Shown: positions 10,295 to 43,040 of the stretch, piece by piece | How the letters are laid out: every line of letters starts with the position of its first letter | Numbering within the stretch: the stretch's first letter is position 1 | From: a phage | Sequence record: PZ445488.1 | Strand: one strand, 5' to 3' | Length of the DNA: 64,000 nucleotides | The notes under the pieces: generated by a model | Database searches by the model: none | What the model was told of the DNA's origin: nothing | What the model saw: the letters and a program-made list of their open reading frames with translations, nothing else | Translations under genes and position numbers: made by a program

Positions 10295-12129
10295 TAGGAC
10301 ATCCATTCTTTACGAAGTTCTGAATCATCACCCAACAACATTTCAAAGAGTTCTTTCCAATTTTCAGGAAGTTTAACTACGTCGTACACAGGGTTCTGAA
10401 TCATTTCACGATACTCTGACTTTTCAAGGGAGCCCAATCCCTTGATGTATCGAATACTATGCTTAGGCAGCGTATCTTTAACTTCTTCATACTCAGCTAC
10501 AGTATAAAACCATTTTTGAGTTTTGCCAATTTGTGCAATAATTACAGGTGTTTTAACAAAGCGAATACGTCCTTGTTCAAACAATTCAGGCCAATTACTA
10601 AAGAAAGCAAGCAAAGCAGGATAAATACTTCCAAGGCCGTCATGATCGGCATCGGTCATAATTGCAATATTACGATAGTTCGTATTCTCTGCCTTTTCAC
10701 CAAGAATAAGACCTGTGATAGCACAGATATCAAAGAGCTCTTTGTTCTTCATCATATCAGCATATGACATACCCCAGCTATTCATCACCTTACCACGTAA
10801 TGGGAATCCGCCGTGTAGTTCACGGTCACGAACATCAATGAGATAACCAATTGCCGAATCACCTTCTGTTAAGAACAATGTCGTATCTGCATCTTTACCA
10901 CATTGGTTAGCTTTAATATGCTTATGAACCTTAGCTTTAGTTGCCTTTTTAGCTGCTTTAGTTTCTGCGGCCTTTTCTGCTGCCAATTTACGAGCTAATG
11001 CTGCTTCAATTATAGGCATTAAAACTGCTTCAGAATTCAAAATATTTTTTGCCAATTTTTTGGTATCTAATTTAATATGCGTCCGAATTTCGCCATAAGG
11101 ACTTGTTAAACGCTCTTTGGTTTGGGAATCAAAACGAAGGTTCTTCATTCCACGAACGAACATTAAGAGAGTGAGACATTCCTTGATGCGCGCTTTAGTC
11201 ACGTCGATTTTATATTTGCGTTTAATAGCCGGAATTAATTCTTCGCAAATGTCGTCCATCACACATTCAATGTGATGACCGCCATTTTTGGTATGGATGT
11301 TATTAACATAAGTTAAATGACGGAAGCCATCTGGTGACCGACCAATGGCAATAGAGCATCCATCTTGTTCTTGAATGACGGTCTCTTCATCAAATTGTTT
11401 AGCAAACTTCTTAAAGTTACCTTTAATCCTTTTGCCATTAAATTTAAATTCAATACCAGGATAAACGACTGCCAATGTTTGGAGCCGGTCTATAGTAATA
11501 TCTTGGTATATTTTTTCAAATTGATTCATTTCAAAATGAGAGAAATCAGGAATAAACTCGACCTTAGTCCCGTTGTTTTTAGACGGCTTAGATTTCCAAG
11601 AAATATTATCAGCATTATTAGAACAATTAACTGTCAATTCGTTTTTACCATCTGAAGTAGTGCCAACAAAAGAGACAGAAAAAATATTTGTTAATGAAGA
11701 ACCGACACCGTTTTGTCCACCCGTAACACGTTCTTTGTCGTCACCAAAGTTGCCACCAGCTTTTGTACGTGTCCACGCCGCAACTGGTCCTGGAATTTCT
11801 TCTCCTTCAGGAGTAATAACTGTTTCTTGAGGAATACCTCGTCCATTATCTTCAACAGTCACTTTATTAGAATTTAAATCAATACTAACAGAAATTTTAT
11901 TAGCATATTTGAAATTGGTTCGAATAGCTTCATCTACCGAGTTGTCAATAATTTCATCAATTAATTTGAGAACACCTGCAACATATTTAACCTTTTTAAA
12001 TTCACCGAATAGGAAACGTTCTTGTTCTTCATTGGCAACACTTCCAATATACATGCCAGGACGCTTCAAACAATGCTCTTTATCAGATAGCATTTCAATT
12101 TTATTATCAATCATTAGATTTTCTCTCAA
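10294..12129 (-). CDS. 39: DNA topoisomerase II large subunit, GyrB-like ATPase + Toprim (single fused 39/60-type gene)
   Basis: 611 aa continuous ORF with GyrB-like ATPase N-terminus; in T4 this function is split into genes 39 and 60. Confidence 0.85.
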   Translation of the reverse strand: MRENLMIDNKIEMLSDKEHCLKRPGMYIGSVANEEQERFLFGEFKKVKYVAGVLKLIDEIIDNSVDEAIRTNFKYANKISVSIDLNSNKVTVEDNGRGIPQETVITPEGEEIPGPVAAWTRTKAGGNFGDDKERVTGGQNGVGSSLTNIFSVSFVGTTSDGKNELTVNCSNNADNISWKSKPSKNNGTKVEFIPDFSHFEMNQFEKIYQDITIDRLQTLAVVYPGIEFKFNGKRIKGNFKKFAKQFDEETVIQEQDGCSIAIGRSPDGFRHLTYVNNIHTKNGGHHIECVMDDICEELIPAIKRKYKIDVTKARIKECLTLLMFVRGMKNLRFDSQTKERLTSPYGEIRTHIKLDTKKLAKNILNSEAVLMPIIEAALARKLAAEKAAETKAAKKATKAKVHKHIKANQCGKDADTTLFLTEGDSAIGYLIDVRDRELHGGFPLRGKVMNSWGMSYADMMKNKELFDICAITGLILGEKAENTNYRNIAIMTDADHDGLGSIYPALLAFFSNWPELFEQGRIRFVKTPVIIAQIGKTQKWFYTVAEYEEVKDTLPKHSIRYIKGLGSLEKSEYREMIQNPVYDVVKLPENWKELFEMLLGDDSELRKEWMS

Positions 12130-16951: not shown

Positions 16952-18265
16952 TCAAATAAAATGGACGTCAAAACGACCGCGAGTTGTGCCGACATACAAT
17001 AACTGTTTAGCTAATTCTGAATCAGCATAATGGATACACGGTGTATAAACAAAGGCCGTGTCAACAGACATACCCTGGGCCTTATGGAAGGTTGATACTG
17101 GTAGTGCCTTCACCTTAGTGAACATACGTTTAGCATCCCAGAATTCACTCCATGGAGCTTTACCACCTTTATTCCAGAATTTGTATGTTTCTGCTGTCTT
17201 AGCCAAAAACAAATTGAATTTATAAAGCTCTTCTTCAGAAGAAATAACCTTTATATCCTCGCGGACGTATTCTTCATCATCCACATATGTTTCTACTGTA
17301 AGATTCCAATATCGTATCATATACTCGCCTGAAACACCACGTGCTTTAACGAATGTAGACGTTTCTACAGCATCTCGAATACGAACGAATTGCCCGTTAT
17401 TGAAAAGCATTTCGGTCATATTTTTGCCATCTAGCTTATACGTCTTGGTAAACGGCTCTTGTAGAACAATGACCTCGTCTTTAATAAATGGTTTTTCTGT
17501 TTCGAGAAGTTTTCGGCGAATAATTGAATTCAACTTATCTACTGACTTATTTGTGAATGCCATCATTCGATTTTCGAAAAGGTCTTCAGGAGTTTTAACG
17601 ACGTTAAAATAGTTCATCATATACGATTTAAGGTCTGTATATCCATGAACACCGTGCCCATCAACTACTTTATCGTAAATCCATTTGCCATTACGAATAT
17701 CAGTCGCAACATCAATAATTGGTGCATTGCTACGTTTAACTTCTGTAAGGTTGCATTGCACGAAGTCTTTGTGAGTGAAGAAAGGACTTAGATACGCAGT
17801 TGATTCGCCTGGGTCTACCGGTCGAATTTGACATCGGTCGCCGATTCCAATTACTGTGCACCATTTAGGGATACTAGCTAACATTATTTTAAACAGAGAA
17901 CGGTCACACATTGACGCTTCATCAAATAACAGTACACGACACAAGGCTAAGTCGGGAACCTTTTTCTGTTCAAATAATACGTTTTCTTCGTATGTAGTTG
18001 GGTTGATTTTAAGAATGCTATGAATAGTCGATGCTTCTTGACCTGCAAGTTTGCTTAGAACCTTTTTAGCAGCGTGTGTAGGGGCTGCTAAAATAATACC
18101 TGATTCTCCAGAAGAAATAAGGGCTTCAACGATGAATCTAGTAAGGGTTGTTTTACCTGTACCAGCAGGCCCATTAATAGTTACGTGATGTTTCTTTTCT
18201 TTAATAGCTTTCATAACAACGTTGAAGGCGTTTTTCTGGCCTTCGGTCAAATCGTCAAATGTCAT
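16952..18265 (-). CDS. dda: Dda SF1 DNA helicase
   Basis: 437 aa (T4 Dda 439 aa); Walker A GPAGTGKTT; synteny. Confidence 0.8.
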   Translation of the reverse strand: MTFDDLTEGQKNAFNVVMKAIKEKKHHVTINGPAGTGKTTLTRFIVEALISSGESGIILAAPTHAAKKVLSKLAGQEASTIHSILKINPTTYEENVLFEQKKVPDLALCRVLLFDEASMCDRSLFKIMLASIPKWCTVIGIGDRCQIRPVDPGESTAYLSPFFTHKDFVQCNLTEVKRSNAPIIDVATDIRNGKWIYDKVVDGHGVHGYTDLKSYMMNYFNVVKTPEDLFENRMMAFTNKSVDKLNSIIRRKLLETEKPFIKDEVIVLQEPFTKTYKLDGKNMTEMLFNNGQFVRIRDAVETSTFVKARGVSGEYMIRYWNLTVETYVDDEEYVREDIKVISSEEELYKFNLFLAKTAETYKFWNKGGKAPWSEFWDAKRMFTKVKALPVSTFHKAQGMSVDTAFVYTPCIHYADSELAKQLLYVGTTRGRFDVHFI

Positions 18266-22293: not shown

Positions 22294-22530
22294 TTAACCA
22301 CTTACTGGTGTAGGGGTAAACATTGCAGCGTTCTTAGTTTTCCAAGTTGCTGCATCAGAAACGACATCAGAATAAGCTGCCTTTTCTGATGGAAAGATTT
22401 GGTAATGAGAATCTGCAATCCGATGTTCGTTTGAATAAATCTCAAACGGTACAGAAACTTCCATACCTTTAACTTCTTTACCTTCACCCGCAGGATGCGT
22501 AAAGGTTTTGATGTTTACATAACCACCCAT
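22294..22530 (-). CDS. soc: small outer capsid protein Soc
   Basis: 78 aa; GYVNIKTF and HYQIFPSEKAAYS match recalled T4 Soc; TATAAATA late promoter 33 nt upstream. Confidence 0.7.
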   Translation of the reverse strand: MGGYVNIKTFTHPAGEGKEVKGMEVSVPFEIYSNEHRIADSHYQIFPSEKAAYSDVVSDAATWKTKNAAMFTPTPVSG

Positions 22531-22562
22531 AATTAACTCCTTTGTTGTTTAATTACAGGTGT

Positions 22563-22570
22563 ATTTATAA
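22563..22570 (-). promoter_or_regulatory. T4-type late promoter TATAAATA for soc
   Basis: Plus tatttata = minus TATAAATA, about 30 nt upstream of the soc ATG. Confidence 0.65.
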
Positions 22571-22575
22571 CTTAA

Positions 22576-23094
22576 TTAGTAACCATTATCCTGACGTTCA
22601 AAGTTGTGTTGGTTTTTCAAGTAGTAAAGTTTAAAGATTTCTTCAGCCGAAAGACCTAGACCTTGGAACATATTTAGAACGAAATGCAGAATATCAATCA
22701 TTTCAAATTTAATTTCAAGCTGGTCTTCAGGAGACAGTTCATCAATACGACGATTTCGATATTCAGCATGTTGTGCCTTCCACGGCTTCCATACACTGCT
22801 GGCGGCTTTTTCACCATTGCTCATACCACCAAGTGAAGTCAGCAGTTCACGGAATTCATCATCAATATAATCTTTCTGATTACGCAGCCAATCAACAACA
22901 TCACCAGCAGTGGCCAATTCATCAGGATGTTTGTTATGTTCAGGCTTGTCATTTGCCAGACGAACCTGTAAAGATTTTTGCATATCAAGCATTACCTGCA
23001 GTGGGTCTTTATCTTCGTGAATCAGAGCATTAAAATAAGCTTCTTCTGCTTTATCAACACCAGAAATAAGTTGTGAACATTCATTAAAGTGCGC
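22576..23094 (-). CDS. 56: dCTP pyrophosphatase (dCTPase/dUTPase)
   Basis: 172 aa from the second ATG (first ATG lies in the AAAGGAAA RBS); MAHFNEC...DPLQVMLDMQ...ELLTSLG...SPEDQLEIKFE...EEIFKLYYLKN matches recalled T4 gp56. Confidence 0.75.
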   Translation of the reverse strand, partial: AHFNECSQLISGVDKAEEAYFNALIHEDKDPLQVMLDMQKSLQVRLANDKPEHNKHPDELATAGDVVDWLRNQKDYIDDEFRELLTSLGGMSNGEKAASSVWKPWKAQHAEYRNRRIDELSPEDQLEIKFEMIDILHFVLNMFQGLGLSAEEIFKLYYLKNQHNFERQDNGY

Positions 23095-23185
23095 CATTAT
23101 TTTTCCTTTCAATTCAGTATAAGAGAGTTAATTCTAACATTAATTTTATAAAGCGTAATAAATAATAGGTAACCAAGGAGATATT

Positions 23186-23383
23186 ATGTTTAAACTTCCA
23201 TCGTTAATCAACGCTATTAAAGGCAATAAAAAGAAAACTGCTATCGCTGCAATAGTTGTAGGCGGCATTATTTCATGGAACTTCGGGATTGCACCATTGT
23301 TAGTTGCCCATGGTATTATAGTTCCTTCTGTTCCATTGGATACTGTAGTTGATTTGGCCTTTGCTATTATAGGACTTGTTTAA
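23186..23383 (+). CDS. small two-helix membrane protein (65 aa), opposite strand to the operon
   Basis: AAGGAG RBS 7 nt upstream of ATG; hydrophobic AIAAIVVGGIISW...LAFAIIGLV; lies in the 56-61 intergenic gap, convergent with gene 61. Confidence 0.35.
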   Translation: MFKLPSLINAIKGNKKKTAIAAIVVGGIISWNFGIAPLLVAHGIIVPSVPLDTVVDLAFAIIGLV

Positions 23384-24402
23384 ATCTTCGAATAACGAGA
23401 TAATCTCATTTTAGCATGCAACCCACTTGAAATATTCTGTTTCATATATTCTAAAATTTCTTGTGGTGTTGCATTTTCTTTCATTACCATATCATTCACA
23501 TCCTTTGAACTCCATGGAGCTCGGTCCCAGAACATAACACGTTCGCCTGCATCTACTAATCGCTTCATACGAGCTATAGTATCCGGATGCCTAGGTTCAT
23601 TATCCATTACCCATACCCGACGTTCTTTAAATGGTACCACATCTAAATCTATTGAGCCGCCTGTAATAGCGATTGCGTTTGGTATGAATAAACTATCAAT
23701 AGGACCTTCCATTACCCAGACGTCTCCTTCCTTAACACGTTCAACACCATAAATTTTTGTTGCAGACTCAAAAGCTTTAATAGTGATATATTTCTGAGGA
23801 GCATCTTTGCGAAGTGCACGTCCTTGAAATGACTCAGCCTTCCCGTCTTTATTAAAAATAGGAATCACTAAACGCGGTTCTGGAATCTCTTTCTTATACG
23901 TGCCTGGTTGAATCTTGTTGACCAATTTAGGCCATTCTAATGTGAACCATAATCTGTTCCATGATTCTTTAGGAATACACCGGGACTTAACATATTTCAC
24001 AATAGGATGCTCTTCAGGCAACTTGTCCAGACGAGAACAAGACGGCAAAGAATTTATAGTCTTTTTCTCCGGTTCTGGTTTATGTTCAGGAACCTTTTCA
24101 ATCTTTGGTTCCATTCTAGCTTTTTCTTTACGAACTTCCATTAGATATTCACGATAAAGCTCTTCGTCATACTCTTTTAAGTATCCGGAAATTGTATTAT
24201 GATATTGACAGTTATAGCAATGCACATTACCTGGAGTACCGCCATAATACCATCCGCGAGCTTTCATTGCATCTGTCTGGGAGTCGCCACAAACCGGGCA
24301 TCGAAATGTTAATTTAAATGTGCTTGAATTATTGATTTGTCTAAAACGAGGTAGGTGAGAAAACGCACGATAAGCAAATTCATTATCTATCCATTCAGCC
24401 AT
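23380..24402 (-). CDS. 61: DNA primase
   Basis: 340 aa (T4 gp61 342 aa); N-terminal zinc ribbon CPVCGDS...CYNC followed by Toprim-like region. Confidence 0.8.
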   Translation of the reverse strand: MAEWIDNEFAYRAFSHLPRFRQINNSSTFKLTFRCPVCGDSQTDAMKARGWYYGGTPGNVHCYNCQYHNTISGYLKEYDEELYREYLMEVRKEKARMEPKIEKVPEHKPEPEKKTINSLPSCSRLDKLPEEHPIVKYVKSRCIPKESWNRLWFTLEWPKLVNKIQPGTYKKEIPEPRLVIPIFNKDGKAESFQGRALRKDAPQKYITIKAFESATKIYGVERVKEGDVWVMEGPIDSLFIPNAIAITGGSIDLDVVPFKERRVWVMDNEPRHPDTIARMKRLVDAGERVMFWDRAPWSSKDVNDMVMKENATPQEILEYMKQNISSGLHAKMRLSRYSKI

Positions 24403-42623: not shown

Positions 42624-43040
42624 TTATGCATCAACCATCTGCTTTTTAATAGCTTCAGGCAGTGATTCAATATATTCTGGAATTTTAGAAGCAACAATTT
42701 CGCCAGCTGCAATTAATTGTTCGTCTGCATCAACACAGTAGAAATCTTCCAGACGCTCAGAACCGTCTTTATCAAGAACGATTTTTCCACCGGCTTCAAT
42801 AGAATCTTTATAGTGCTTACGCATCAGATGAATCCACATATCAGATACATCGTTATCAATAAAACCATAAATCATAAAACGAGTTTCTTGTGGCAAAGAT
42901 TGAAGCTTTTTAGCACTTGCGTCATCACAATGCAGGACCCATGCTTTACGAACACGATTATGGTTATGCGGGTTAGCGTCAGTACGGATAGAAGTAACTT
43001 TCAGATCAGCAGCAGTGAAACCTTTAGCAGTAGTAAACAT
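42624..43040 (-). CDS. rpbA: RNA polymerase binding protein RpbA-like
   Basis: 138 aa at the rpbA position between 45 and 46; assignment by synteny. Confidence 0.45.
   Translation of the reverse strand: MFTTAKGFTAADLKVTSIRTDANPHNHNRVRKAWVLHCDDASAKKLQSLPQETRFMIYGFIDNDVSDMWIHLMRKHYKDSIEAGGKIVLDKDGSERLEDFYCVDADEQLIAAGEIVASKIPEYIESLPEAIKKQMVDA

Follow-up and report, generated by a model that had tools for sequence, protein, structure and literature searches.

Gene organization between genes 56 and 61

The window, by which we mean the whole 64,000-nucleotide stretch of DNA that was analyzed, comes from a Mosigvirus-type T4-like phage. The 282-bp gap between gene 56 and gene 61 in this window was found to be mostly filled by an ORF on the plus strand (23186..23383, +), which begins with ATG and consists of 65 codons followed by TAA, thus encoding a 65-aa protein (MFKLPSLINAIKGNKKKTAIAAIVVGGIISWNFGIAPLLVAHGIIVPSVPLDTVVDLAFAIIGLV). 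Gene 56, which encodes dCTPase, is located on the minus strand at 22576..23097/23112 and constitutes the downstream neighbor on the early strand; its likely start is the ATG at 23097 (MAHFNE...). Gene 61, which encodes the DNA primase, occupies 23380..24402 on the minus strand and converges with the 65-aa ORF, with which it has 4 nt in common: the stop codons of the two genes overlap in TTAA at 23380-23383. This arrangement confirmed the earlier placement of the ORF in the 56-61 gap in convergent orientation to gene 61. The same 4-nt overlap between the ORF and gene 61 was detected in RB69, T2, T4, CF1, Potts1 and Kosakonia phage 305. The 4-nt overlap of the stops leaves no space for a terminator between the two genes, and a terminator scan of positions 22900-23800, which include this junction, found no terminator-like site. 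The ORF region shared 100% identity with a fragment of Escherichia phage CEV1, and many RB69/HX01-like phages matched it at ~98%.

A greedy ORF map of the window, with a minimum length of 50 aa, contained 96 minus-strand ORFs versus 6 plus-strand ORFs. None of the other five plus-strand ORFs was preceded by a Shine-Dalgarno sequence, in agreement with the preliminary description, according to which the 65-aa ORF was the only convincing plus-strand gene candidate. The longest of these five, a 150-aa ORF at 42717, was rejected as a gene, as it runs antisense to two real minus-strand genes.

Late-promoter motif and ribosome-binding site

Inspection of the upstream sequence identified an element resembling the -10 element of T4 late promoters, AATAAATA, at 23157..23164 on the plus strand, 21 nt upstream of the ATG of the 65-aa ORF. 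The consensus of T4 late promoters is TATAAATA at -13 to -6, and an A at -13, as in the window, is the commonest variant in T4, with A or T being common in its relatives (PMC2988020, PMC1524935). The ORF thus has the arrangement that defines T4 late genes, a TATAAATA-type element at -13 to -6 without a -35 element, and transcription would start near 23170. In each of the eight genera sampled, N[A/T]TAAATA was found 12-22 nt upstream of the ATG of the orthologue, and the flanks of the motif differed. A perfect TATAAATA was present upstream of the orthologue in Potts1 and Kosakonia phage 305, and position -13 was G or C, which are rarer variants, in the orthologue promoters of T4/T2, Gaprivervirus and Jiaodavirus (G in T4). 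The only copy lacking a late-promoter motif of its own was the downstream member of a tandem pair in phage UPEC01 (UPEC01b, described below). The HMM-based list of RB69 late promoters compiled by Nolan et al. does not contain a site upstream of the RB69 orthologue, RB69ORF029w (PMC1524935).

The Shine-Dalgarno sequence AAGGAG is located at 23175..23180 on the plus strand and is separated from the ATG by a 5-nt spacer, so that the strong AAGGAG site at ideal spacing reported in the preliminary description was borne out. Every separately promoted orthologue contained AGGAG, GGAGG or GAGGA 3-5 nt before its ATG, and UPEC01b had no such match. These motifs suggest that the 65-aa ORF has its own gp55-type late promoter, in the opposite orientation, and is therefore very probably made late in infection. 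Because no terminator-like site lies between the ORF and gene 61, the late transcript would run antisense into the primase gene. Literature searches that covered the names of the ORF, small T4 proteins lacking annotation, and late or antisense transcription around gene 61 retrieved nothing on the ORF.

Read-through into gene 61 would not be universal, because in Jiaodavirus the ORF and gene 61 are separated by a hairpin. This GC-rich hairpin (GGGGCtttgGCCCC), observed in Klebsiella phage KMI13 (L006 1660-1700), resembles a terminator that acts in both directions. The window, T4 and RB69, in which the ORF and gene 61 overlap, do not have it.

Several other promoter-like sequences were noted in the window. 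The heptamer ATAAATA occurred 6 times versus 29.3 ± 4.8 expected, a five-fold depletion, and only two of the occurrences were on the plus strand. The plus-strand copy that does not belong to the 65-aa ORF, at 10621, was rejected as a gene promoter, as it lies antisense inside the topoisomerase gene and is followed by neither an ORF nor a Shine-Dalgarno sequence. The depletion of ATAAATA across these 64 kb of early genes suggests selection against spurious late promoters. On the minus strand, three TATAAATA sites were found (at 22569, 54250 and 61692). The perfect match at 22562-22569 (-) lies past the 3' end of gene 56 and directly upstream of soc (22294..22530, -), and it agrees with the late promoter known for soc, which is an established late gene; the equivalent soc site in the RB69 late-promoter list is Pl:15279 (PMC1524935). 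A weak sigma-70-like match, TTGATT-17-CATAAT, was present on the minus strand at 23183-23211, within the 5' end of the ORF, and could serve gene 56; the number of matches of this type was not above shuffle expectation.

Distribution of the gene and selection on its product

Homologues of the 65-aa protein were detected by tblastn in ~840 phage records from at least eight genera, namely Mosigvirus, Tequatrovirus (T4, T2), Gaprivervirus, Moonvirus, Jiaodavirus, Dhakavirus, Kanagawavirus and Marfavirus. Every homologue inspected was 63-67 aa in length and directly followed gene 61, on the strand opposite the early genes. The window protein matched phrog_2024 over its entire length (E = 1.9e-27, 95.8 bits, residues 1-65 against profile positions 1-65 of 65), and it shares the synteny of this family, on the opposite strand and immediately downstream of the primase gene 61. 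The annotation of phrog_2024 is 'unknown function'. RB69ORF029w (NP_861719; also RB32ORF030w), which is annotated as 'hypothetical protein', differs from the window protein by one residue and has the same position, strand, promoter and Shine-Dalgarno sequence, as well as a nearly identical upstream sequence, with no structural difference from the window ORF.

The T4 orthologue is intact, encodes 66 aa and is 54% identical to the window protein. It is located at 17738..17938 (+) of NC_000866 (L002 3239-3439), in the gap between dam and gene 61, and is preceded by GATAAATA and AAAGGAGG, and the reference annotation contains no feature there. The ORF is also unannotated in the records of JS98, JS10 and IME08.

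Two paralogous subfamilies were distinguished: type A, which comprises the window and T4 proteins, and type B, which starts with MGTLFYQIWKL and occurs in Dhakavirus, Marfavirus and Gaprivervirus. In the Gaprivervirus UPEC01 (L003), a type A gene (1501-1698) is followed in tandem by a type B gene (1707-1907), the two being 9 nt apart. In UPEC07 (L004, around 1700-1800), type A was kept and type B had decayed, having lost its start and gained a stop.

No opposite-strand ORF was found after gene 61 in Slopekvirus, Krischvirus, Pseudotevenvirus, Bragavirus, Biquartavirus or Lazarusvirus. Gene 56 directly follows gene 61 in KP15, Krischvirus and RB16, and another gene on the same strand follows it in Bragavirus, Biquartavirus and Lazarusvirus. 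Because the Straboviridae outside Tevenvirinae lack an opposite-strand ORF after gene 61, the ORF looks like an insertion between the primase and dCTPase genes at the base of Tevenvirinae, whose ancestor would have acquired it in reversed orientation together with its own gp55-type late promoter. The locus would thus present a late 'moron' that entered an early replication operon in the reverse direction.

To estimate the selection acting on the protein, dN/dS was calculated by the Nei-Gojobori method (NG86). The ratio was 0.07-0.30 in most close pairs, indicating that the protein is under purifying selection; the window and L009, for instance, were separated by 13 synonymous and 4 non-synonymous changes. 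Type A genes of Gaprivervirus, where the paralogue coexists, gave higher ratios (0.34-0.64), which suggests redundancy between the paralogues. Synonymous sites were saturated between genera, and the ORF, its length and residues W31, N32, P37, G43, P47 and G63 persisted. We conclude that 23186..23383 is a true gene that encodes a protein and is orthologous to RB69ORF029w. The proposal that a small membrane protein is encoded here by a real gene on the plus strand is supported by this conservation, by the synteny, the purifying selection and the strong Shine-Dalgarno sequence, and by the predicted helices described below. That proposal was made by an author who could not see the existing annotation in RB69 and hundreds of relatives, the late-promoter motif or the link to PF11351.

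Predicted membrane protein, remote holin homology and possible roles

Hydropathy analysis (Kyte-Doolittle) of the 65-aa protein identified hydrophobic segments at residues ~18-41 and ~51-65, and the AlphaFold2 model (mean pLDDT 77) contained helices at residues 4-13, 15-41 and 51-62. The N-terminal segment (residues 1-17; 23186..23236, +) is Lys-rich and includes the short amphipathic helix 4-13, and the positive-inside rule would place the N-terminus in the cytoplasm. It is followed by a long predicted transmembrane helix (residues 15-41; 23228..23308, +), which carries the invariant W31-N32 and P37. For RB69ORF029w, a single transmembrane segment (residues 21-41) and no signal peptide were predicted by Nolan et al. 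2006 (PMC1524935, suppl. 2). Following the long helix is a conserved loop, G43-x3-P47-x3-L-[DE], also written HG-x3-P-x-xP, and after this loop hydropathy and AlphaFold2 place a short hydrophobic C-terminal helix (residues 51-62; 23336..23371, +). The two hydrophobic helices announced in the preliminary description were thus recovered as segments, but the second comprises only ~12-15 residues, so that a two-pass topology is plausible, and a helix of this length may or may not span the membrane. The model and the hydropathy profile point to a small inner-membrane protein as the probable product of the ORF.

Direct scans with the window protein gave no Pfam hit, even at E ≤ 10, and no NCBIfam hit. 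A word-indexed homologue search with the single sequence recovered 7 close relatives only, and an alignment query reached further. A pattern scan of IMG/VR identified 96-aa proteins whose C-terminal 45 and N-terminal ~12 residues align with the ORF; the N-terminal segment of the ORF (residues 1-17) aligns with the IxxIIELIKSG N-terminus of the 96-aa homologues from prophages, and the T4-like proteins resemble these homologues minus a charged linker of ~31 residues. The 96-aa homologues are common in enterobacterial prophages, P0015 alone being found on 941 contigs. They matched phrog_2024 with E values of 1e-9 to 4e-11, and matched PF11351 (GTA_holin_3TM) with E ~0.01 and 14-17 bits, which is below the gathering threshold of 24.8 bits.

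A profile of the combined family was searched against 1.84 billion representative proteins and retrieved only 38 clusters at E ≤ 1e-3. Four of these clusters (P0146, P0152, P0154 and P0155), retrieved at library-wide E values of 1e-5 to 8e-4, scored 30-56 bits on PF11351, for which the cutoff is 24.8. The profile built from T4-like proteins only (A5) was aligned by hhalign with these four PF11351 members, and the comparison, with a template of four sequences only, gave probabilities of 96.8-97% and E values of 1e-10 to 3e-10 over 45 columns. Reversed or column-shuffled templates scored 8-14, versus 57 for the real one. The aligned stretch of the window protein, residues 20-64 (23243..23377, +), corresponds to the last two hydrophobic segments of PF11351, and the motifs W-N-[FY]-x3-P and G-x3-P-x3-L-[DE] are common to PF11351 members and the ORF.

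The full PF11351 architecture, which comprises an N-terminal hydrophobic helix, a charged or coiled linker ending in WRP, two further transmembrane segments and a basic C-terminus in a total of ~110-150 aa, is not present in the ORF. With 65 aa, the ORF protein lacks about one-third of the domain, including the linker, the WRP and the basic C-terminal tail, and it ends at the GL[VI] that precedes this tail. The window protein does not reach the gathering threshold of 24.8 bits, whereas homology to bona fide PF11351 members is detectable at the profile level. On this evidence the ORF and the PF11351 lineage are homologous, but by the criterion of Pfam itself the ORF does not count as a member. 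The ORF product resembles PF11351 proteins in being a small phage membrane protein that is probably made late. The RcGTA holin, from the rcc00555-rcc00556 endolysin-holin locus, is an experimentally supported PF11351 member (PMC5026251), and another member, TeaA of Vibrio phage ICP1, collapses the PMF and gives DNP-triggered lysis (PMC7182436). Within PF11351, holin activity, which comprises PMF collapse, lysis on addition of an energy poison and endolysin release, has been demonstrated only for ICP1 TeaA and the RcGTA locus. Many PF11351 members from marine phages are named 'holin' on the domain alone. The ORF does not adjoin an endolysin gene, any holin activity of its product would be putative, and T4-type phages already have holin T.

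The genomic context of the homologues was also surveyed. The neighbors of the ORF in T4-like phages are the genes for primase and dCTPase (or dam, or Hoc-like genes) and not lysis genes, and the ORF does not lie in a lysis cassette with an adjoining endolysin or spanin gene. In siphophages and prophages, the homologues are surrounded by tail or late genes, have EndoVII or SegE-like genes as neighbors and do not form part of a tight lysis cassette. At a prophage end in an enterobacterial chromosome (CP153342; L034 7218-11592), a 96-aa homologue lies beside genes for a SegE-like GIY-YIG protein and a KAP NTPase, with a lysozyme gene ~1.4 kb away on the other strand. In siphophage contigs, the homologue accompanies genes of the tail module (the phrog_1924 'minor tail protein' and a tail assembly chaperone) and no endolysin gene. 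A search for an endolysin gene near bona fide PF11351 hits found none nearby on one contig; the other contig is very short. A recurring group, consisting of the 96-aa homologue, a ~189-aa phrog_1924 'minor tail protein' and a ~103-aa protein, was observed in L034, and this trio reappears, reordered, in siphophage contig L041.

Two known types of holin were compared with the ORF. Holin T of T4 (218 aa) has a large periplasmic domain and one transmembrane segment. Together with the antiholins RI and RIII, this holin occurs in the same phages and in the inner membrane, and the ORF protein, being probably made late, could act in the same permeabilization step; however, there is no sequence similarity between the two, a Pfam scan gave no Phage_holin_T hit, and the ORF protein has almost no soluble domain. 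The class II holins or pinholins, such as S68 of phage 21, are similar to the ORF protein in size (65-70 aa) and to its predicted two-helix hairpin, but no sequence relationship was detected. This class is defined by two transmembrane segments in an N-in/C-in topology, a charged C-terminal tail and a dual-start motif. By these features, the ORF protein has two predicted helices, the second of which comprises 12-15 residues, and no charged C-terminal tail. The dual-start motif of class II holins is not conserved in the ORF family: T4 has M1...M6, and the window protein has M1 only.

The explanation that we favor, with a probability of roughly 0.55, is that the ORF is a conserved late gene encoding a holin-derived accessory inner-membrane protein. 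According to this explanation, a late transcript with a short leader and a strong Shine-Dalgarno sequence would yield a 65-residue inner-membrane protein with a Lys-rich cytoplasmic N-terminus, a long transmembrane helix, a short periplasmic turn and a hydrophobic C-terminal helix, which may form a helical hairpin or a re-entrant tail. The protein would be a shortened remote PF11351 homologue that kept the last two hydrophobic segments and lost the linker and the WRP. It would accumulate late in the cytoplasmic membrane and tune permeabilization or the timing of lysis together with T, the main holin, and would not be a stand-alone holin. T4 t mutants fail to lyse, and because t is required for lysis, the ORF protein cannot replace holin T or be a self-sufficient holin. 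Taken alone, the accessory role in membrane permeabilization or lysis timing, which, like late transcription and topology, we infer from the sequence, has about one chance in three of being right. A bolder version appears unlikely; in it, the protein is an overlooked component of T-even lysis, a late holin-family hairpin that serves as a co-holin or intramembrane antiholin, partners or modulates T and helps to set lysis timing or inhibition, its late transcript also running antisense into the primase gene.

The main rival is a real late membrane protein with a role outside lysis, such as superinfection exclusion, anti-defense or a membrane-anchored helper function in a late process or in virion assembly, for which the holin ancestry would be merely historical. 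We regard this as possible but doubtful. The prophage-end homologue beside the KAP NTPase and SegE-like genes, a typical position for moron or exclusion genes, and the siphophage homologue among tail-module genes rather than with an endolysin are consistent with such a role, as are the loss of part of the holin domain and the complete lysis set that T4 already has. However, the only families with significant similarity to the ORF are holins, and comparison with Pfam, NCBIfam and PHROGs revealed no resemblance to proteins of the Imm, Sp or Cor type. Exclusion in particular fits poorly with the late-promoter motif of the ORF, since Imm and Sp, the known exclusion proteins of T4, are made before late transcription begins. 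A mainly regulatory role was also considered, in which a late antisense RNA into gene 61 shuts down the primase and the early operon and the peptide is secondary. The conserved tail-to-tail overlap of 4 nt and the missing terminator-like site would suit this role, and in T4 several sites are known where both strands are transcribed, though not at the same time (PMC2988020). That the role is purely antisense-regulatory is nevertheless improbable, because selection acts on the protein, as seen in the dN/dS well below 1, the invariant W-N, P, G and P residues and the conserved strong Shine-Dalgarno sequence; the Jiaodavirus hairpin between the ORF and gene 61 also argues against it. That the ORF arose by chance in an AT-rich spacer, or is a remnant resembling a type I toxin without a function for the phage, might be suggested by its small size, its hydrophobicity and its absence from the curated T4 reference annotation. 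This reading is effectively refuted by the sequence comparisons, because the ORF, its length and its key residues persist in 8 genera despite saturated synonymous sites; purifying selection, the retained promoter and Shine-Dalgarno motifs and the maintenance of paralogous subfamilies at the same locus likewise argue against it.

The ORF itself is not new, because many genome annotations already list it as a hypothetical protein. The missing T4 annotation, the conserved late-promoter motif and the link to a holin family appear to be unreported. T4 is a reference organism of molecular biology, and its curated genome annotation lacks this gene, which is under selection and conserved in all genera sampled within its subfamily. 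The holin lineage and the likely late promoter provide a concrete hypothesis on the function of the ORF that can be tested cheaply. If the protein does act in lysis, the T-even lysis system, which is among the best studied, would have an overlooked component that is missing from the T4 reference annotation; if it does not, the ORF would simply add to the small accessory membrane proteins of the T-even group.

Some orthologues carry functional labels in public records. The labels 'head morphogenesis' in T2 and 'DNA packaging ATPase' in UPEC01 were not accepted, as they look like artefacts of annotation transfer, and the T2 label 'putative head morphogenesis protein' also sits on an unrelated 61.1 homologue. 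Spurious names, 'DNA packaging ATPase' and 'major capsid domain-containing protein', were likewise observed on small ORFs of UPEC01 and UPEC07. The loci with spurious product names in public records are L001 2492-2692, L001 3720-3884 and L003 1707-1907.
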